Below, in pieces: positions 33,950 through 64,000 of a stretch of DNA of 64,000 bases. The position numbers were made by a program, and so were the translations under genes. The notes under the pieces were generated by a model. That model had not been told where the DNA came from and did no database searches. It saw nothing but the letters and a program-made list of their open reading frames with translations. The DNA comes from Harriotta raleighana (taxonomy: Eukaryota). The DNA is taken from NCBI GenBank assembly GCA_050575255.1, contig JBNZDD010013730.1, positions 5,882,015-5,946,014 on the forward strand, written 5' to 3'. Position 1 is the stretch's first letter. Each line of letters starts with the position of its first letter.

Positions 33950-34043
33950 ACACCTACAAAATATATAGTCCCTTCACTTTACAGTAAATCCTGTGAAGCA
34001 GTTTTGAATCAGTCTTGCGATGTGAATGGCATTATGTGAAATC
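33950..34043 (+). mobile_element. SINE 3' fragment
   Basis: cacctacaaaatatatagtc..ttcactttacagtaaatcctgtgaagc matches the family tail. Confidence 0.65.
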
Positions 34044-34049
34044 TATGAT

Positions 34050-34878
34050 CTATGGCAGATGAAGTATAATGTAGGGAAGTGTGAAGTCATCCACCTAGGT
34101 GGTAAAAACAATAGTGCAGATTATTTTTTAGAAGGGGAGAGACTAGATAGTGTTAGCATTCAGAGGGACTTGGGTGTCCTTGTACACCAGTCTCAAAAAG
34201 TTAGTTTGCAGGTACAGCAAGCAATTAGGAAGGCTAACGGTATGTTGGCGTTCGTTACAAAAGGATTAGAATATAAGAATAGGGGAGTCTTACTGCAACT
34301 GTGTAGGGCTCTGGTGAGATCGAACCTAGTATATTGTGTGCAGTTTTGGTCGCCTTATTTAAGAAAGGATGTACTCACCTTGGAGTGGGTACAACGTAGA
34401 TTCACTAGGTTGATACCTGGTCAATGAGAGAGATGAGTTATGAGGATAGGTTGAACAATCTAGGCCTATATTCTCTAGAATATAGAAGAATCAGAGGTGA
34501 TTTTTTAGAAACCTTTAAGATTATTAAGGGGCACTATAGAGTAGATAGTGGGAGACCGTTTCCCCTGGTTGGAGAAACTATAACCAGTCTTAAAATTAGA
34601 GGTCAGCCCTTTTGCACTGAGTTGAGAAAATATTCTTCACACAGAGGGTAGTGAATTTATGGAATTCTCTACCTCAAAGGGCTGTAGATGCTCAGCCCTT
34701 CAACATATTCAAGACTGAAATTGATAGATTTCTTGTGGATAAAGGGATTAAGGGATATGGGAATAAGGCGGGTAGGTGGAGTTAGAATAGATCAGCCCAT
34801 GATCTTATTGAATAGCGGGGCAGGCTCAAGGGGCCGAATGGCCTACTCCTGCTCCTAATTCTTAGTGTTCTTCTTATG
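34050..34878 (+). mobile_element. 5'-truncated CR1 LINE (ORF2 C-terminus plus 3'UTR), frameshifted
   Basis: WQMKYNVGKCEVIHLG...RDLGVLV...KANGMLAF...YCVQFWSPYLRKD..LEWVQRRFTRLIPG / MSYEDRLNNLGLYSLEYRRIRGD; 3'UTR gggccgaatggcctactcctgctcctaattct. Confidence 0.96.
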
Positions 34879-50240: not shown

Positions 50241-50538
50241 TAATAATATCATAATAATCCTTGCATTTGATATAGCGCTTTTCACATCTTATTTGGCATC
50301 TCAAAGCGCTTCACAGAATTTACTGTAAAGTGAATTGACTGTATATTTGTGGGTGAGATACGGCAGCCTATTGCGCACAGCAGTGTCCCACAAACAGTCG
50401 TGGATTGAAAATGATCAATTTTATTATTGTGGGTTTTTTTGCAGGGATTATTATGAGGTATGTGGAGTAAGGAAACTTGCCCAAGGTTTCGCCCTGATCT
50501 GTGGGCGAGTACCTGAACCACTGAGCTACAGGAGCTCC
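50241..50538 (-). mobile_element. tRNA-derived SINE (deletion in head)
   Basis: Reverse complement of the family consensus; B-box region shortened. Confidence 0.92.
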
Positions 50539-53421: not shown

Positions 53422-53737
53422 AATAATAATAATAATCCTTGCATTTGATATAGCGCTTTTCACATCTTATCCCAAATCGCTTCACAGAATATACTGTAAA
53501 GTGAATTTACTGTATATTTATGGGCGGAACATGGCAGCCAATTGTGCTCAGCAGCGTCCCACAAACAGTCATGGATTAAAATGACCAATTTTATTCATGC
53601 GTTTTTTTTGGAGGGATTATTATTAGGCATGTGGAGTAAGGAAACTTGCCCAAGGTTTCGTCCTGATCTGCCTGGATTCGAACACAGGTCTCACGCTTGT
53701 AAGGCGAGTGCTCTTACCACTGAGCCACAAGAGCTCC
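53422..53737 (-). mobile_element. Full-length tRNA-derived SINE
   Basis: Minus-strand head ggagctcttgtggctcagtggtaagagcactcgccttacaagcgtgagacctgtgttcgaatcc, body, (ATT)n tail. Confidence 0.94.
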
Positions 53738-53912: not shown

Positions 53913-55371
53913 ACTCAACCACTGACAAGTGCCTTCATTAGCCAAGGATCAGGCTGGAGACCTCTCCGATACAAGACGCCATTTTATAGGAAAAGTTATG
54001 CGTTCAATTTTACACTGTAAGAACTTACAAGAATTTCTAGAATGTGACTAGTTCCATGTTAAGCAGAGTGACAATTAAAGTGAAGCCCCTTACTAACATT
54101 TTAAGTTGGAAGCAGCCGGGATATTGACAACATGGCTACTTAAGTGGTAGTGACAAGTTAAGCCAGTGTCTTAATATCAGGAGATTTCTGAATAGCAAAA
54201 TATGTTTTTTTTAAAATTGTTCAGTAAGCTAATTCTCAGGCTCTTTATGTGTACAGTATTTAAAGTTAGTGTATTGAGATAGGACATGAGCTACAATTTC
54301 TTCTGATAGGCACTGTCATAGTCCTCTCTGCAAATGTGAGCAACAGCTGTTGCTGATATAGAAGAATAAATAATGGCTTCCTTGCCACCCTCCTCCTCCA
54401 TCCACAGCAGGAGATAAAATATTTGACACACACAAATCAAATACCAATGTGCTTTTCAGATCTTTCTGTGCACTGAATGAATGCAGACCTTCCAGCTAGA
54501 AAATGCAAGCTAAGGACCCAGATATTTCTAAGACTTTAATGTAATGATATATAAAACAATACTAGGACCCCACTTCACAAGACTGAAAGCAAGAATTGTG
54601 CTGAAGCAAGAGGTCATGGTTTGTTCTACTTTGTGTTTTCAGGCCTTATGATGTAATAACACCAATTGTTAACATGTGTTAATTAAACTGAGGCCAACTT
54701 GCCACACAACCAGCTTGGCTCCTCTGCACAGCAGCAACACCAGTTCTCCAATACCCTTATTATGAAACAGCTTTCACACTAATTTACACCTGCAGAAGCA
54801 TGAATTCAGCACAAAAAGTACCATGTATGATCTGAAACGTACAGTCATTTAGACCATGTCCACCAAAAACAGTCACATTGGTGGCTGAATGATCAAATGA
54901 CACAGCCACCAGCTGAAGTCAATCACCTAGAGCTGACACAACGACTGAGAAGCGCTATGGAGTCTTATATCACAGCAACACAAAATGTCTGAAAACAATT
55001 ATTGTATTGTAAGTTTTTTCCAAAACAGCACAAATAAAGAGGGTGAGAACATCCTCTTGCTGCTAGGTTAATGCATTCCCATTATAAACCCACACCATTG
55101 CACTTAATAGCAAAAGGTATTTCTCACCCTCAATCTGTGTCCATAACACTCTATAGTTTCTTATATAATTTGACTGGGGCAAAAAACTCACAACAGCATT
55201 TTAGATTTGTTCATCTACATTTTGTGTAAATCCTATGAAGGGCTTTTAAGGACAATTAATAGAAGCAGCTGAGTTTCTGCACGATCCTTTTTCTTGTCTT
55301 CAATTTCCACTGGATAAAAATTGGAAAGACTTTTCCAGGTACAATTTTCTCTTCCTGAATTACTCTTTATT

Positions 55372-55580
55372 ATCTCCCTCCCGGCTCCCCGTGTTGAGTG
55401 CGACGCAGCGCGCTTGGGGGCGGCCCTCCTGCCAACCCCAGCCCTCACCACCTCGCCCGCCCCTCCCCCTCCACAGCCACGTTCAACTGGAAGGGCCAAC
55501 CGATGGTCGAGGAACCAGCGGACCCGGTGTTCACCCAGGAGCGGATCCTGCGGCAGTGCGCGGAGCTGTACAACAAACGC
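55372..55580 (+). other. CpG-rich segment (captured 5'UTR/first exon of the parent gene)
   Basis: Abrupt switch from AT-rich flank to GC/CpG-dense sequence with GC boxes (gggggcgg, cccgcccc). Confidence 0.7.
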
Positions 55581-55806
55581 CAGAAAGTTCCCACTTTAGG
55601 ACTGTCAAGGATTGGAAATGGTCCTAGGCCTACGCACCGCTCCTCCCCACAGGAAGATCACTATTATGGTGATTGGAAACCGCTCTGCTGGCAAGAGCAC
55701 CTTCATCAATTGGTACATGGAAGATATAATTCAAAAAACAGGAGTTTCTCTTGAGACGCAAGGAATTACTTTCCTCACAGGTGGCAGGAAAAGAGAAACT
55801 CTTCGA
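55503..55806 (+). pseudogene. Processed, 3'-truncated, frameshifted fragment of an uncharacterised EHD/sarcalumenin-like (dynamin superfamily) P-loop NTPase
   Basis: MVEEPADPVFTQERILRQCAELYNKRQK..GLSRIG, a +1 frameshift in the AAA at 55616-18, then MVLGLRTAPPHRKITIMVIGNRSAGKSTFINWYMEDIIQKTGVSLETQGITFLTGGRKRETLR. Walker A GxxxxGKS follows a hydrophobic strand. From memory it resembles an uncharacterised fish/invertebrate family (zebrafish si:dkey-98f17.5-like). No introns. Confidence 0.82.
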
Positions 55807-55842
55807 GTGGTTCAGGCGGGCGGCGAGGACAGGGAGCTGGAC

Positions 55843-55920
55843 TGTTGTTAATTGTTGTTGTTGTTTCTTCTGTTGTTGCTTTTGCTTATTATTGTTGATG
55901 ATGTTTGTTGTTGTTGTTTG
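55843..55920. repeat. Degenerate (TTG)n microsatellite
   Basis: tgttgttaattgttgttgttg...gttgttgtttg. Confidence 0.9.
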
Positions 55921-56197
55921 CCCCCCCCTGACCTTTTGCCCTCCTTTTTCTTCTTCCCTCTCTCCCTTTCCCCCCTTCCCTCCCTCTTCCCTCTTGCCCC
56001 CCTTTCTCCTTGGTTTCCCTCCCTCCACCTTTACCCCCCTCTTCCCCCTTGCCACCATTTCTCCCTCCTTGTCCTCCTTGATTTCCCCCTTGTCCTCCTT
56101 TCTCCGTCCTTTTTCCTCCCTGATTTTACCCCACCCGCGTTTTCCTCCGTCTCCCCCCTTGTCCCTTTTTCCCCCTTTCTTCCCTGGCCCCATTTCC
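55921..56197. repeat. Polypyrimidine (CT-rich) low-complexity tract
   Basis: Almost only C/T with recurrent ccttg/cccctt units; may include low-quality base calls next to the gap. Confidence 0.85.
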
Positions 56198-56249
56198 GTG
56201 TATGTTTGTGGGACACTGCTGTGCGCAATTTGGCTGCCGCGTTTCTCCC

Positions 56250-56375
56250 NNNNNNNNNNNNNNNNNNNNNNNNNNNNNNNNNNNNNNNNNNNNNNNNNNN
56301 NNNNNNNNNNNNNNNNNNNNNNNNNNNNNNNNNNNNNNNNNNNNNNNNNNNNNNNNNNNNNNNNNNNNNNNNNNN
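56250..56375. other. Assembly gap
   Basis: Run of N; sequence left of the gap (~56150-56249) repeats sequence right of it (~56380-56480). Confidence 0.99.
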
Positions 56376-56426
56376 CAACCCCTCCCCTTGCCCTCTTTCC
56401 CCCTTTCATCCCTGGCCCTCTCGCTT

Positions 56427-56615
56427 CCATGACTGTTTGTGGGACACTGCTGTGCGCAATTTGGCTGCCGCGTTTCGCCCACAAATATACAGTCAGTTTT
56501 TCCTGCTTTTCTTCCCCCGACCCCTCCCCCCACTTGACTGTACAGCGCCTTGGGACGTCCTCCTGACGTGAAAGGCGCTATATAAATATAATAAATAAAT
56601 AAAATAAAATAAATT
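56427..56615 (+). mobile_element. Chimeric SINE body plus L2 3'UTR/tail with (TAAA)n end
   Basis: ccatgactgtttgtgggacactgctgtgcgcaatttggctgccgcgtttcgcccacaaatatacagtca (SINE), then a C-rich linker and cagcgccttgggacgtcctcctgacgtgaaaggcgctatataaat, nearly identical to the L2 tail at 60861-60905. Confidence 0.88.
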
Positions 56616-58394
56616 ATTGGGATCTAAGCCAGAGATTTAATTGTTGACTAATAGGTTGAATGTCTAATTGTAAATAAACTGTGTATCCTCTTTTCTAAAT
56701 AAACCAATACTCACACCAGGAGAGGAATTTTGCTGCAATTACTGAAAGTAAGACATAAGCTAAGTGTTTATTTTATGTACACCTCAATGCCTTTCAGCAG
56801 GACAGCAAGTAGCCATTTGCTTCAATGCATTGAGGAAAAATGATCGCTCAGTGTGCAATAATCTTCTGTTTGTGTCAAGTTGGATACTGGGCTGAATTTT
56901 TTTTTAAAACTCAGCAAATATTTCCATTCATACAACAAAAATGTCAAAGTACAGGATTAAATCCTATCTCCTTCATCAGACCGCTCAATGTGGTTTGCAT
57001 GAATTTGTGCAGCACTATTTTTCTTACTCACGAGATATCAGCAATATTTAATGCAGCTCAGTTCTCTATTTATAGTACACATTGTGAATCGATAGTTATG
57101 TCTGATGTATGTGTAATAACTAGGAAAATGCTTATGTTATTCCACAAATTAGTTCTAGCAAAGGGAGCGCCCCTTCTTTGAGATAGTGTATTCAAAGTTA
57201 GATGTGGTTCTGTGACCAGTTGAGATCACTGGCTCAAAAACAATGAACATGATTTAATTCAATCACAGGCCTCTGTTGGTCTGTCAGACCTGCTGCTGCA
57301 AAGTCAAAAGGATGGCTTTCAGCAATGGAAATGCCACAAAGTGCAGACACACATATACATTAAAAATAATGAAGTCAATAGTGAGCATTTTTTCTATGTT
57401 TCAATGCACTGCAGCTTTGCCTTGTGCCAACATGCCTCCAGTGTGCCCAAGACCCATGATAAATATACCTTTGAGCTCATTATTGTCTAATTAGCACCAC
57501 TAACCAAACTACAAAACACATTTTCATAACAATGAGTACGAGTTTGTAGTCTAAAAATAACCAGCCATGGAGTTCTCATTTGCATATTAATTAACTGAAA
57601 AAAAATGTTTTCTCAGGTCGTTTTTATTCCTCTGCTGCATAAAATTCAAACACTTAGAACCATAAGATTCGCTTTATTATGGTTTTCCAACAGTTCAGAG
57701 GTGCAACAGCTGACATTTTATGAAGCAAGTGCTGATTCTTTTTAATTAACACGATCGTTTACCTTCTAATGTTGGGCATTTTCCTGGTTCATGTTAAATA
57801 TATTTAGAACTGCAAAGTTAAACCAGCCTCGGTCATGCTGACTTTCGCTACGACTGCAGAGAAAGAGTGACAAAACTGCAGGAAGCCAGATTTCATCAAC
57901 AATTCACATGTAGAAACAGAGGCTGAAACTCAATAAAATTGGCATAGCACATTTTCATGATATACCAACCAGGACTGTCAGGGCTGAAGTGAATTTCAAA
58001 ATATATTGAATACATAATACAATTTTCCAGTCTGGACAAGTTTAAAAAAAAGCAAGGAACTTAGCTTTCAAAATTGTATCATCCACTTCCAATGTGACAG
58101 GTCCCATGATTTTTAGCAAGTATGATACTTTCAAGGTAAGAGAACACTGATACTGGAGAGTGTTTTAATTGAGGACAATACATCATATTGCAGATTCATA
58201 CCAAAATTGTGTACTTTGTGGTGATAATAGCTGCTAAGCAGAAAGACCATAGAAATGATCAACGGATTAATAGGATCTGTAACTGATTAGGAATAAAATT
58301 CAGTAAAACACTTGGAAATATCCCTTTTGGTTGCATCATGTCAAGTTCACAAAAAAAAGGATTTTGTTTAGGATAAGGTCCCCAAATATATATA

Positions 58395-58681
58395 TTTTTA
58401 ATGGTACAGCTTTTCACTTTTTCTAGAAGTCTGAAAGTGCTTCACAGAAAATACTGTAAAGTGAATTGACTGTATATTTGTGGGCGAAACGCAGCAGCCA
58501 ATTGCGCACAACAGTGTCCCACAAACAGTCCTGGATTGAAATGACCAATTTATTATTGTTAATTTTGAGGGATTATTATCAGGCATGAGGTACAAGGAAA
58601 CTTGCCCAAGGTTTCGCCTTGCCTGGAATCGAACCCAGGTCTCTTGCTTGCAAGACATGTGCTCTAACCAACAGGGCTCCA
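58395..58681 (-). mobile_element. Near full-length tRNA-derived SINE
   Basis: Reverse complement of the family consensus including B box ggttcgattcc. Confidence 0.92.
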
Positions 58682-59274
58682 ATATGGAATTCATAATTTG
58701 CAATGAAGTACAAAACACGACTAATTTCAATTAGTGCAAGATTAACTTGGAGAATAACACTACAACATGCTGGTACAATACATAGAAGGGTAGCTCCATC
58801 TCCCACTCAGAATTGAACTCATTGCATCCACAACACCATGAAAGATGCTTTGATATTTGTTAACATTCCCTCAGAAGTCGACAAAATGCCAGCCCTTCAG
58901 GCTCTTACAACAAGTTTAGACGAGGCCAAAGGTGTTTTGTTGCAATTTGCCACAACAAAATCTGAAAAACTACACATAAGGGAACAAAATGCAGCAGAAC
59001 TGAACTGAGCATGCTGAGGAAAGTCCTCCAGAGAGTTGACAAACAAGAAAACAAATGGCAGTCACTGATCCATCACAAGCAACATCTGTGACATAGCTTG
59101 ACATGTTCACAACTCCTTTGAATATCATCACCTATTAAAACCCTTCAGTGTAGAATTCACATTACTCAAGCTGCTCTCAATAGAGTTCTGCCTTCATGTC
59201 TTTAGCCACATTACTCATATTGTCTCCTCTGCATTCACCACAAGCCAATTGAATTGTTGGTTTGACAAATTGAA

Positions 59275-59680: not shown

Positions 59681-60557
59681 TAAAGTGATTTGCAGATGAT
59701 TTATGATATAGTTTAAGGTGCAGTTTCAGAATTTTTAATTTGTCAAAAACATAAAAGGCATGATGTTAGCTTAGGGGCCACTTCAAATACATCAGTGCTG
59801 ATGCGATGCAGAATTCACATAAAAATGTATGCAACTGAAAATACAATCAGTGATTATATAGAATTTCCCATGATACAATGATATGACATAAGCTTTCAAC
59901 ACTCAAAGGTGATTTATTGACCATTCATCACAATGACACTACATTGTACCCTTGTCAAATGAGTTTGAGAAGCATTACGGGAACAAAGCATTTCAATGCC
60001 ACACATGAGATGACTTTTAATCCTTTGAGGCCAAGGGTAACATTTTCTTACTAAACATTTTTTTCTAAAAAAAACTTTTTAAAAAAAAAGTCTCAAGTCT
60101 GCACCAAGGTTTCATTGATGTCATGTATGTCAGCACATCTGAACACCATAGCATACGGGGTGGTCTCACATGGTGTAGGATATATAAAAGTTCATTTCCT
60201 GTCTGATCGGATGAAAAGAATGATTGTAAAATTGTCCAAAGGGCACTCAGGAAATCTATCTACATCTTCTGCCTTTCTTTCGTGTGAATGGGAGTGTTCA
60301 AGATACCAGGGTTTTCATATTATTATACTTCATGTTTCTTCTACCACAATAATGCACATCTCCTTGTTCCCAAACTCTTCCAGTAGAGTGTGGAATAGAA
60401 ATATGTTACAAGGAAAAGCATGCACGATAATTTCAGGGTGTTGATAAATAATGTTAGAAAGTCATCAACAACTGTTAACAGCTTCAGAAGTGGTGTTAAA
60501 GGAATAGCATATAGGCCACTGGTCTCAATCAGCCACAATTTTTTATTTTTTGGGCTC

Positions 60558-60931
60558 AGGTGGGTGTCCTGCCCGTACCCTCCGTTCTTCTGGCTCTGGT
60601 CTGCTCCACATCCCCTGCCCTAACCGCCCTACCATTGGCGGCCGGGCTTTCAGCTGCTCAGCCCCCAGGCTCTGGAACTCCATCCCCCAGTGCCTTCGCC
60701 TCGCTCCCTCCCTTTCCTCTTTCAAGGCCGGCCTCAAGACCTTTCTCTTCGACCGTGCCTTCAGCTCCCCTCTCGACTCTCTACCTCCTCCTTGCTCCCA
60801 CCCTCCCCCTCCCCCCTCCCCCCGAACATTTCCCCCTGCTCGGGTCTTAAATCATCTGTCCAGCGCCTTGGGACGTCCTCCTGACGTGAAACGCGCTCTA
60901 TAAATGTAATTTTGTTGTTGTTGTTGTTGTT
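60558..60931 (+). mobile_element. Young 5'-truncated L2 LINE 3' end
   Basis: PARTLRSSGSGLLHIP..RPTIGGRAFSCSAPRLWNSIPQCLRLAPSLSSFKAGLKTFLFDRAF, C-rich UTR, stem-loop tail, (TTG)n; CpGs retained. Confidence 0.95.
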
Positions 60932-60990
60932 GCAGAAACCCATCGCCATTCTTAAGAGCATCCAAACCAAGCTGAGATTTCCATTTATAC

Positions 60991-61298
60991 TAATAGTATT
61001 AATCCTTGCATTTGATGTTGCACTTTTCATGTCTTCTAGGCATCTCAAAGCGCTTCACATATTATACTGTAAAGCAAATTGACTGTATATTTGTGAGAGA
61101 AATGTGGCAGCCAATTGCGCACAGCAGTGTCCCACAAACAGTCCTGGATTGAAATCACCAATTTTTTATTTTTTTTTGAAGTTTTATTATTAGGCGTATG
61201 GAGCAAGGAAACTTGCCCAAGGTTTCACCCTACCTGGAGTTGAACCCAGGTCTCTCCCTTGCGAGACAAGTCCTCTAATCACTGAGCTACAGGACTCC
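60991..61298 (-). mobile_element. Full-length tRNA-derived SINE
   Basis: Minus-strand head ggagtcctgtagctcagtgattagagg, body and tail. Confidence 0.93.
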
Positions 61299-64000
61299 AT
61301 CTACACATTGAAATCCCAGGGATACATTGGTGGAATGGAATGGACACTCTCCCTGGAGGGACGCATCCTGCTTATCTAATTCCGGAAAGAATTAAGACAA
61401 GTTAGCAAAAGCCAAGGCTTGGGGATCCCAGAGTGTGCCTTTGGGGTACTCGCTGAGTCTAACCAGCCAAAACCCCACAGCTTGTCATTCATATGGCTGT
61501 CAGGCAAACTTTCCCGCTGCTTGTCCACCTAGGACCACCCAACACATTAGGGTTTTGGCTTGCTCAGCTCTTTTAACAGGAATGACTCCCTACTCCCAGT
61601 GACTGGTCTGCCCTTCCAAATCCTGATGGTTAGCTGTGCTGGCTATGCTGTCGTCAGCAGTGGCCTGGAATATTGCAGACCTCAGGAGCCAGATTACCAC
61701 AGAGGGCTGGCTTGATTCCGATATTCCATTGTGGATTGAAGGATGTTATTTGAATCCATGTTGCCGTTGTTGGATCTCCTGCACAGAAAGTCTAATATCT
61801 TATTTCAATTTTTGGTGAATCTCTTCAAAAAGAAACTGTACTTCAAGTAAATAACTTAAAACGTGAACTATGCTGCCTGTGTGGAAGGCACTACTGTATG
61901 TACATATGATTTGTTGTTGTTATGCTGCTGGTTCATTCAACAGTTAAGGCTGCTATCTGGAATGCACAGAAGGCTACGATTGATATCAACTTTCTGCGGT
62001 TAAAAAGGAGAAATTAGGAAAAAACCCAGGCTTCTGAGTTATCTACCTCATCAGAAACTTAGCTGGAGGTGTGAGGATATCAGGCATTGCCATTATTGCT
62101 TTCAAAAGCCACCCAACCCACCAAAAATCCTGCTGTTGCTTACTATCTAAGTTTACACATGAGAAACGGTCATTTGGACAAATTGCAAGCTACAAAAAGT
62201 GATTTTGTGGCTACTAGTGTAATAGTACTCAGCAAGTAAAACTCTTTAAATCTCCTACCCTGTCTCATATCCTCTACTATTTTTTTCCAACAGATGTGAT
62301 AGACTATCTGTCACTCTTTAATATATATATGTTTTTTAAATGCAGTATATACTCTCATTTGACCATGAGCAAAATATAGATCAGTGCCCATTGAACAGCA
62401 GAGCAAGATACCAGTTTACAACTCGAAAACCATTTTAATCCCTAAGTCTCCTTCAATGTTACGTGTTCCTGTCTCCTTGCCTGATGTGGTCATTTGTAGC
62501 CTCCTGTACTCTTCTCTAGTTCATGACTGCCTACTTGTCTATACCAAAGAGACATTTTAATCAATTTCTTGTGACTGAAGTTCAAGTAACTGGTTTTGAT
62601 GAAGGAAAAGTCAATGTAATGCAGACAAGCTGGAAAAACAGAGTTTCTTGCCAATTGGCGAGTACATTTCAAGATGTTTTTAACTGCAAGAATAAACACC
62701 AAAGCATAGTATTGAAGAAAACTCTACAAATGTTTTCTTAAATCTTACTAATCTGAGGTTTCAATGAAGATCAAAGAGGAAATGGAGTAATGTTTGAGAA
62801 TGTGTTCCAGGTAATCAGAAACTTTAATGTCATGCGATAAAAATTTATACCAACATCCATAACTATTTTATGGATTTTTTTACAGTCGATGTTTTAAAAC
62901 AGATAGTGTTTTTTTGGTGGGTGAACCAGATATCTGACACATGCGGAAACTCCTCACCACGTTTAAGAGCATCCAAACCAAACAAAGTTCCATGCATCCC
63001 ACCAGTATGATGTAAAAAATGTTTGAATTTTTGGCAATGCTAAACTTCCACATATAAGTGGACCTCAGTGACAGTCTGACATGAAAAGAACAACAATTTA
63101 GAAAGGCAGAATGATCAGCAGTGCTTCTTAAAACTTGAATCTGAATAAACGGCAGATTTATTATCTCAATAGAATGAGAACTTTGTGAAAAGTGTTGAAG
63201 ATATTACTCTCCACCAATGGCAGAAAAGTGCATGGTTCCACAGATTACTGTAATTTTGATGAGCACTGTAAACTAATCATTTCATCTGCCTCTTTATTAA
63301 AGGATTAAAATTGTCATCAGTTGCTAGAGCACTTGTCTGCAGGATCAATTAACCTAGGGACATTGCAGATCATCTTATGAAGCTGCTTCACCTGCACTAT
63401 TATGATTTTCAAATTGAAAATTTATTCACAATCTCAGTATTTTACCTCTGAAAGGGTTGGGTCTGCCACATCAATGAGGTACTTGATTCTAAATCATCAG
63501 ATGTTGCTATTTGATAACTTGATCCCTTTCTAAACCTGTTTTTGTCACTTTAAGGTGTCCTTCCGCATCCATCAGCTGATATAAATATACACAGGTAAAT
63601 TGTTGTCATTTTGGTTTACGCTGAAATAAGTTAATGCATCAGCAATGCTCTTTATTAATACCTTTTTACAGCTAAAAGTTTTTATGTTTTTAAAGTTCTG
63701 TGTTAAGGTCAGAAATACACCCAATGATATGTTTTCACCTACTCGCTTCACTAAGTACAAATAGACCAAATCATTTAATTGTATGAATATGATTTAAAAA
63801 AACTCCCTCCCTCTCTCATTTTCCACTCACAATGCAGACAAAAAAAGGTCAACACACTTGTCCTGTGACTTGTCCCTAACCTTAACACACGCAATACACT
63901 TGGAAGTGACGAGCAGTATTGTAGGAGGCAGCCCAAGAGTTGTCACAAAAGAACTAATGTTCTCAGTGGTTCTGAAGATATCCTTTCAAATCTTCAAGTA

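Follow-up and report, generated by a model that had tools for sequence, protein, structure and literature searches.

A host-element fusion in Harriotta raleighana hints at a cartilaginous fish counterpart of the gene-capturing SVA elements of apes

The SVA, LAVA, PVA and FVA retroelements, which are composites built around a variable number of tandem repeats (VNTR), have been described as specific to hominoid primates. Among these, human SVA_F1 contains exon 1 of MAST2 and chimpanzee pt_SVA_D6 contains exon 1 of STK40, and both have been assigned to splicing events that joined the end of the host exon to an AG in the element (PMC6139936). The enzymes of the L2/CR1 group are held to need their own 3′ end and so to bypass mRNAs (PMC3747384, PMC5470649). 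The SINEs of the elephant shark carry L2-2_CM tails (PMC5499810), and SINEs with heads other than tRNA are represented by snoRTE, MeloSINE and the GC-rich heads in birds (PMC7245038). Retrocopies are common in cartilaginous fishes, for which a total of 14,081 has been given (bioRxiv 10.64898/2026.06.26.734816).

The locus described here is located in a stretch of 64,000 nucleotides from Harriotta raleighana (assembly GCA_050575255.1, contig JBNZDD010013730.1, positions 5,882,015 to 5,946,014), referred to as the window, and coordinates given without a scaffold name are positions in this stretch. A preliminary description had recognized a co-oriented block of host NTPase sequence, simple repeats, SINE-like sequence and a LINE-like tail, the order and coordinates of which hold on rereading of the sequence (Table 1). 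The block had also been called CpG-rich, which is true of five measured segments with observed/expected ratios of 0.68 to 0.89, as compared with 0.34 for the 64-kb window (38% GC), but not of the (TTG)n tract, which has no CpG, or the CT-rich tract, with a ratio of 0.52.

Table 1. Features of the block and its borders in the window
Feature	Position	Strand	Evidence or remark
Candidate left target-site duplication TTATT	55367-55371	+	Same 5-mer at 56614-56618; both ends AT-rich
Host exon 1, 216 nt	55372-55587	+	98% to G000:C13487:379753-379968, then GT donor
Exon 1 subparts	5′UTR 55372-55478; start codon 55479-55481, altered to ACG	+	Comparison with parent
Host exon 2, 124 nt plus extra T at 55619	55588-55712	+	98% to C13487:387136-387259, AG/GT bounded
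P-loop GNRSAGKST, in exon 2	55675-55701	+	Dynamin_N, E 1.2e-5
Host exon 3, 94 nt	55713-55806	+	98% to C13487:387646-387739; ends exactly at splice donor
Element linker	55807-55851	+	100% to many copies over 55807-55845
(TTG)n-like tract and CT-rich body	55852-56185	+	Element copies
First box in common with local tRNA-headed SINE	56186-56249	+	Aligns with second box
Assembly gap, 126 N	56250-56375	.	40 bases in gapless copies
Second SINE-shared box and C-rich linker	56376-56544	+	92-98% over 56376-56613 to young copies
3′ stem-loop in common with local LINE 3′ ends	56545-56578	+	Fold z -4.3
AT-rich tail with (TAAA)n and AATAAA hexamers	56579-56613	+	Sequence; tail 30-mer counts
Candidate right target-site duplication TTATT	56614-56618	+	Same 5-mer at 55367-55371; AT-rich context

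The 1.2-kb block is one insertion. In sequencing run X6, which represents a relative (organism C), contig 26 covers positions 55236-55373 and 56622-57397 with 4 letters between them, and therefore corresponds to the empty site that had been proposed as a check in a related species; the X6 flanks diverge from the window by several percent. The TTATT copies at the two ends of the block fall within the length range of 3 to 5 bp at which the target-site duplications of the L2 clade peak (PMC4245944), but are weak evidence when taken alone since both ends are AT-rich. We consider it extremely improbable that a truncated retrocopy and a truncated element inserted independently beside each other, or were placed together by an assembly join. 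The gap inside the block and the junction, which no record bridges at 55806/55807 among those listed for runs X1, X2, X5 and X6, would be compatible with such a history, but the relative shows one empty site for the entire block, the host part lacks a separate tail and stops precisely where an exon does, and the gap falls within a known element, in which 40 bases bridge it.

The host part, 55372-55806, consists of the spliced exons 1 to 3 of a dynamin-family gene on scaffold C13487, to which it is 98% identical. A genome search with 55372-55845 (386 candidates, of which the best 40 were scored) returned the window and three separate matches of 98% identity on C13487, and no third locus for the host part was seen among the matches listed, in which the other rows span the last 39 bases only. 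The parent exons of 216, 124 and 94 nt are followed by GT donors throughout, with AG acceptors on exons 2 and 3, and the intervening introns are absent from the copy; the intron-containing parent gene that the preliminary description had asked for has thus been located. In run X6, contig 27 has exons 2 and 3 separate, as in the parent gene. In run X1, record 3 tracks the spliced exons from 55371 to 55809 and departs from the window on both sides, which we read as an assembly path that links parent and copy, and in run X2, record 12 spans the exon 1/2 junction without the added base.

The identification of an NTPase was correct, in that the piece with the P-loop matches Dynamin_N, at a level below the curated cut-off (E 1.2e-5), but the start codon of the parent aligns to 55479 and not to 55503, where the coding sequence had been thought to begin. 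The closest protein relative of the captured piece, with 79% identity, is a protein of 450 amino acids in the elephant shark, which matches Dynamin_N above the cut-off and for which one cluster member is named EH domain-containing protein. A tblastn search of C13487 with this protein gave ten matches, reaching about 433,000, which implies that the parent gene has at least 11 exons. The copy differs from the parent by 7 substitutions and one added base over 434 nt. The parental ATG reads ACG, the extra T at 55619 shifts the reading frame, and 3 of at least 11 exons are present, so the NTPase chimera is not a functional retrogene but a dead, single retrocopy fragment. As a rough guide, the divergence of 1.6% corresponds to an age of ∼15 million years at the rate of about 0.1% per million years applied in PMC5499810, where a rate six times slower is also cited.

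The remainder of the block, 55807-56613, is the 3′ part of a young, pre-existing element of about 1.1 to 1.4 kb. Its modules did not come together at this locus: a reading of 15 dispersed loci showed the same complete series, from the linker through (TTG)n, the CT tract and one or two of the SINE-shared boxes to the tail, with 5′ ends cut at varying points. Sequence identities over 55807-56249 were 87% to 96% to 33 young-lineage locus records and 71% to 83% to older ones. The duplicated box around the assembly gap is real, and the 126 N of the gap correspond to 40 bases in all 24 locus records (23 places) that matched the search pattern. The suspicion of low-quality bases can be dismissed for the CT tract and the duplicated box, which have the same sequence in gapless copies.

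In copies for which the upstream context was read, the linker begins directly after a pyrimidine tract and an AG, and upstream of the junction there is a GC-rich 21-bp tandem repeat, the VNTR, with one to about twelve units per copy. A fixed 5′ end is common to nine loci, and the gapless full-length copy L031 is 1,069 nt long. The junction 26-mer has 294 exact copies in the genome and the tail 30-mer has 1,927 exact matches (0 for both reversed controls). Thirty of the tail loci reach 32 to 951 nt into the element and have a fixed 3′ end and variable 5′ truncation, while one of them resembles a LINE end, with a common stretch of just 56 nt. In the assembly, single-N joins often collapse or duplicate the middle of the element (L010, L013, L019, L026 and G000:C13487:410169-410279), and counts of full-length elements are therefore underestimates. 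The summed depth over an element-specific bin, 55822-55915, was thousands of times the flank depth in runs X1 and X2 and about ten to twenty times in X5 and X6, values that are not copy numbers, and this contrast is a weak hint that the young lineage has expanded recently.

No tRNA or other Rfam match was obtained in the head of the element (the tRNA hits in L026 and L048 are outside the element, and L031 has none), and four head frames had no match in Pfam at E<0.1 and hence no reverse transcriptase frame. From the lack of a tRNA head we infer transcription by polymerase II; the head is CpG-rich, with observed/expected ratios of 0.71 to 0.98. In several copies (among L026, L031, L052 and L157), the 5′ end reads AAGATGGCG, which we take to resemble a YY1 site as found at the 5′ end of L1. 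A frame of 170 to 220 codons that ends in two cysteines was observed at L026:1199-1849, L058:1025-1543 and L090:1517-2122. The head was also considered as a coding ORF1 and rejected, as no relative was found in Pfam, the ESM Atlas or the protein search, and the one match in a profile search, to a protist repeat protein, was judged spurious. The frame in the VNTR head was broken in 18 of 26 young copies as compared with 3 of 16 old ones, the old set being biased by partly consisting of sequences picked by protein search.

Copies of the local tRNA-headed SINE are located at 50336-50404, 53509-53734, 58400-58700 and 61000-61300 in the window. About 70 nt of this SINE are in common with the element, at 84% to 94% identity to six SINE copies in the window, and the tails are different. 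The shared box may resemble the body of the Deu-domain SINEs.

At the junction, the donor of parent exon 3 reads CGA/GTGAGT, the element reads ...TTTTTGAAG/GTGGTT, and the chimera reads CGA/GTGGTT. The two parts are thereby joined exactly at the exon 3 donor and exactly after an element AG that follows a pyrimidine tract. A 20-nt test interval ahead of this AG contains 15 to 16 pyrimidines, which equals the acceptors of parent exons 2 and 3 (15 and 14), and the AG-free zone is 42 to 51 nt long. By pyrimidine content, this AG ranks second of the 42 AG sites in L031, and it is part of an AAG rather than the commoner YAG. Exon 3 joins the linker in frame, and a stop follows after 14 codons. Exon 4 of the parent starts with GGC, and the homology of the element with the spliced exon 4 at the junction is 1 nt only.

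Taken together, the intact stem-loop tail, the spliced exons, the exact donor/AG junction, and the empty site in the relative point to a retroposed host-element fusion. The intron-bearing parent and the empty site also bear out the earlier suggestion that a host transcript was fused to a LINE-tailed non-autonomous element and moved as one unit. We regard exon trapping followed by L2-type retrotransposition as the best reading of these data and as a probable one. It would require that intron 3, which is 22 kb long, or a region farther downstream once harbored a sense-oriented copy of the element. Such a copy in a long intron would supply both an acceptor and a 3′ end, and thereby yield a spliced host-element RNA in which exon 3 was joined to the acceptor AG of the element and which ended at the element tail, with AATAAA possibly serving as the poly(A) signal. 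A stop 14 codons into the last exon would spare the RNA from nonsense-mediated decay, and the borrowed stem-loop would let a tail-specific L2 enzyme copy an RNA that is otherwise ignored. The gene-truncating intronic allele would later have been lost.

The preliminary description had proposed to look for the modules in an intron or downstream of the parent gene. No acceptor-bearing copy of the element is present within 120 kb of assembly around this gene, and none of the exact 26-mer matches in the ordered list is on its scaffold. Intron 3 (21,981 nt) holds just one old piece of the element, of 81% identity and without the acceptor, and its three single-N joins have no element ends alongside, while intron 4 has a short, young, 3′-only piece with a different tail. 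The absence of the source copy from the parent introns may reflect a lost allele.

No source copy is needed if, instead, reverse transcription from element RNA reached 55807 and then switched to a host RNA as template, which could have been a partly spliced pre-mRNA or the free exon 1-3 splicing intermediate. Such template switching is a recognized route to chimeric retroposons (PMC7245038), and the start of intron 3 in the unspliced parent and the element have GTG in common at the junction, a microhomology of 3 nt that would suit the partly spliced pre-mRNA. Both forms of the switch nevertheless seem unlikely, as the jump must have hit the exon end and one of the best acceptor-like AGs of the element simultaneously. 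Truncations no more than about 12 nt upstream of the junction are seen in at least 12 other copies, but the decrease from 1,927 tails to 294 junctions predicts approximately one truncation per base, which argues against a hot spot. Also very unlikely is trans-splicing, in which the host pre-mRNA would have contributed exon 3 and an independent element RNA the acceptor, before retroposition of the joined RNA. This would account for both exact splice sites as well as for the missing source copy, but the loss of a harmful intronic allele is a simpler account of that absence, and an abundant route of this kind should have left more chimeras than 1 in 294. Trans-splicing is furthermore rare in vertebrates.

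The preliminary description had raised the possibility that the chimera founded a multi-copy family. However, among the matches scored the host part was found at the parent gene and in the window alone, so the chimera has not been amplified into a subfamily, and a gene-capturing family with the NTPase was rejected for this reason. Nor did pattern searches reveal a second capture at this acceptor among the 294 exact young copies. A base other than G before the junction was seen in 13 of these, namely the window, 9 point variants in which the element continues, and 3 copies that are cut a few bases upstream. The patterns BG, BAG, HAAG and VGAAG fitted 0, 0, 8 and 2 of the 294 copies, respectively, and would miss exons ending in TGAAG. 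For four of the truncated copies a parent exon was sought, and no further locus bordering the junction was obtained; L069 and L071 were assessed visually as a microsatellite and a LINE piece. No capture was seen in the older VNTR lineage with the two of the four patterns that were run.

A multi-copy, gene-carrying family does exist one level up, with histone H2B instead of the NTPase. In addition to the young lineage, we identified an older VNTR lineage (1,840 DNA candidates, of which the best 40 were scored, and 2,050 candidates by protein), which has the head, body and AG in common with the young one and a (TTA)n tail in the copies that were read. A third lineage, which surfaced in a pattern search, has histone H2B sequence in the middle. 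In a DNA search for this type, the best 40 of 558 candidates scored at 79% to 100%, and all 30 loci examined contained the linker present in the window, 14 of them reaching the shared 5′ end. Alignment of the three lineages holds for roughly the first 150 nt, a stretch that takes in the beginning of the histone fold, and resumes shortly ahead of the acceptor, the AG of which is missing from the H2B-type copies.

The H2B-type frame of the copy L147 had no match in Pfam, but matched 28 H2B-family proteins and, over about 80 residues, solved H2B chains in the PDB (E 4e-16 for single H2B chains). In a protein search, the best 150 of 460 candidates were scored. The eight best matches examined were host-type loci, with DNA identities of 69% to 72% to the element over about 218 nt, whereas 20 of the next 22 examined carried the element body or tail, and 141 of the 150 scored matches ranked below the nine best in score. 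Such H2B-bearing element copies would inflate counts of H2B genes. A tree of 34 natural sequences, inferred with no outgroup and with a bootstrap that had not fully settled, placed 29 element rows on one side of a branch with support values of 100/99, and L214 and L193 were nearest to the host genes. A one-base loss was shared by 10 of 12 H2B-type copies, and such shared frameshifts indicate that the H2B protein has not been maintained.

The locus L214 contains, at 1330-2500 (G000:C13655, about 141,300-142,500), the sequence of a full-length but broken H2B variant, whose N-terminal tail is rich in glycine, followed by the 3′ half of the element. The N-terminal part of L214 had no second match in the genome, and L214 is possibly a founder-type copy or a second independent chimera. 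The locus L193 (G000:C13676, about 110,400-111,900) is a copy of great age in which the H2B fold, 86% identical to L214, is nearly intact, and it has an extra middle segment that was not observed in the other lineages. The host H2B genes, at L185 to L192, are of at least three types, of which L191 is divergent in the histone fold, and L211 is a decayed copy of the L191 type. No intact donor gene of the H2B variant was found.

The identity among copies, with gaps included, was about 80% to 87% for the H2B type, 80% to 90% for the old VNTR lineage and 87% to 98% for the young one, from which we infer the order H2B, old VNTR, young VNTR. These sequence comparisons are best explained if the carrier family goes back to the capture of a protein-coding sequence, with histone H2B joined to the same body and tail. 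In the later lineages, the 21-bp VNTR module would then have taken the place of most of the H2B part, the AG acceptor would have arisen, and the tail would have changed. If true, this series provides a rare view of a protein-coding RNA becoming a mobile family.

The tail of the element is 91% and 81% identical to LINE 3′ ends in the window, the former over 56 nt at 60856-60911, and the LINE-derived part of the element is demonstrated for the last ∼55 nt alone. The tail hairpin folds with z-scores of -4.3 and -5.1, and 0 of 200 shuffled sequences folded equally well. Frames upstream of LINE 3′ ends with such tails match RVT_1, and their C-terminal motifs presumably place these LINEs in the L2 clade. 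Given these motifs, the shared tail, and what is described in PMC5499810, the driver of the element is likely to be an L2-type reverse transcriptase. LINE 3′ fragments with the same stem-loop, located at 1225-2000 and 60508-60940 in the window, represent a candidate driver family, and the fragment at 60.9 kb has a (TTG)n-type end. An open frame was also observed at 34026-34424, in which we see a resemblance to the C-terminus of CR1-type reverse transcriptase proteins.

The block suggests that a cartilaginous fish evolved its own counterpart of the ape gene-capturing SVA elements. We lean slightly towards the view that it belongs to an undescribed family of thousands of L2-mobilized copies that arose from the mRNA of an H2B variant, swapped in a VNTR, gained an acceptor and traps host exons. 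The same joint reading would make it an independent SVA-like system and a means for a tail-specific LINE to copy ordinary mRNAs, for which the balance is likewise only a little better than even. Since enzymes of the L2/CR1 group are held to depend on their own 3′ end, splicing onto a tail-bearing element would be a way round this rule and a source of retrocopies in the retrocopy-rich genomes of cartilaginous fishes. No description of an H2B-headed, LINE-tailed family with VNTR descendants was found in the portion of the open full-text literature that was covered; Repbase or Dfam may list the family with no remark on where it came from. The words "histone" and "retro" do not occur in the accessible part of the chimaera genome paper (PMC12952989).

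Exon trapping by VNTR composites is already known in apes, and the locus would be a new instance that involves another enzyme class. VNTR composites and their exon trapping have been described as hominoid and L1-dependent. The analogy with SVA_F1 drawn in the preliminary description is closer than was claimed, in that the junction is at an exon donor and an element AG, and the full element has a VNTR. As in SVA_F1 and pt_SVA_D6, a non-autonomous VNTR element has a GC-rich host first exon in place of its 5′ part. However, these are L1-driven and have reached 84 and 94 copies, respectively, whereas the chimera in the window is a single copy, contains three exons and has lost the VNTR, the acceptor being 3′ of it. 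Compared with SVA_F1, it also has a stem-loop/(TAAA)n tail instead of poly(A), with no Alu or SINE-R part in common.

The tRNA-headed CmiSINE (SINE2-1_CM) and SacSINE1-CM of the elephant shark, with L2-2_CM as partner, resemble the element in being holocephalan and in having L2-derived tails and a shared 3′ body (PMC5499810), a comparison made by description. The element is longer, 1.1 to 1.4 kb, and is without the tRNA-derived head with A and B boxes that defines SINE2. It does have the 3′ stem-loop and microsatellite tail in common with a LINE of the same genome that are expected of an L2-dependent element. The unusual SINE heads reviewed in PMC7245038 come from non-coding RNAs or have no assigned origin, and none of those listed is a histone coding sequence, whereas the head of the element is H2B-derived. 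Like processed pseudogenes, the chimera is an intronless copy of a host RNA; unlike them, it has no poly(A) of its own and rides on the tail of the element. With SVA, LAVA, PVA and FVA, the element has in common that it is non-autonomous and modular, with a GC-rich variable-number repeat, 5′-truncated copies and host-derived modules (PMC7353768). SVA/LAVA elements are characterized by a hexamer, an Alu-like domain, a VNTR of 36 to 49 bp, a SINE-R/LA domain, poly(A) and an L1-type duplication, whereas the element, in a cartilaginous fish, has a 21-bp unit, an H2B-derived head, a LINE stem-loop tail and a duplication of at most 5 bp. By analogy, and with no homology claimed, it would thus work like the SVA/LAVA composites without being a member of them.
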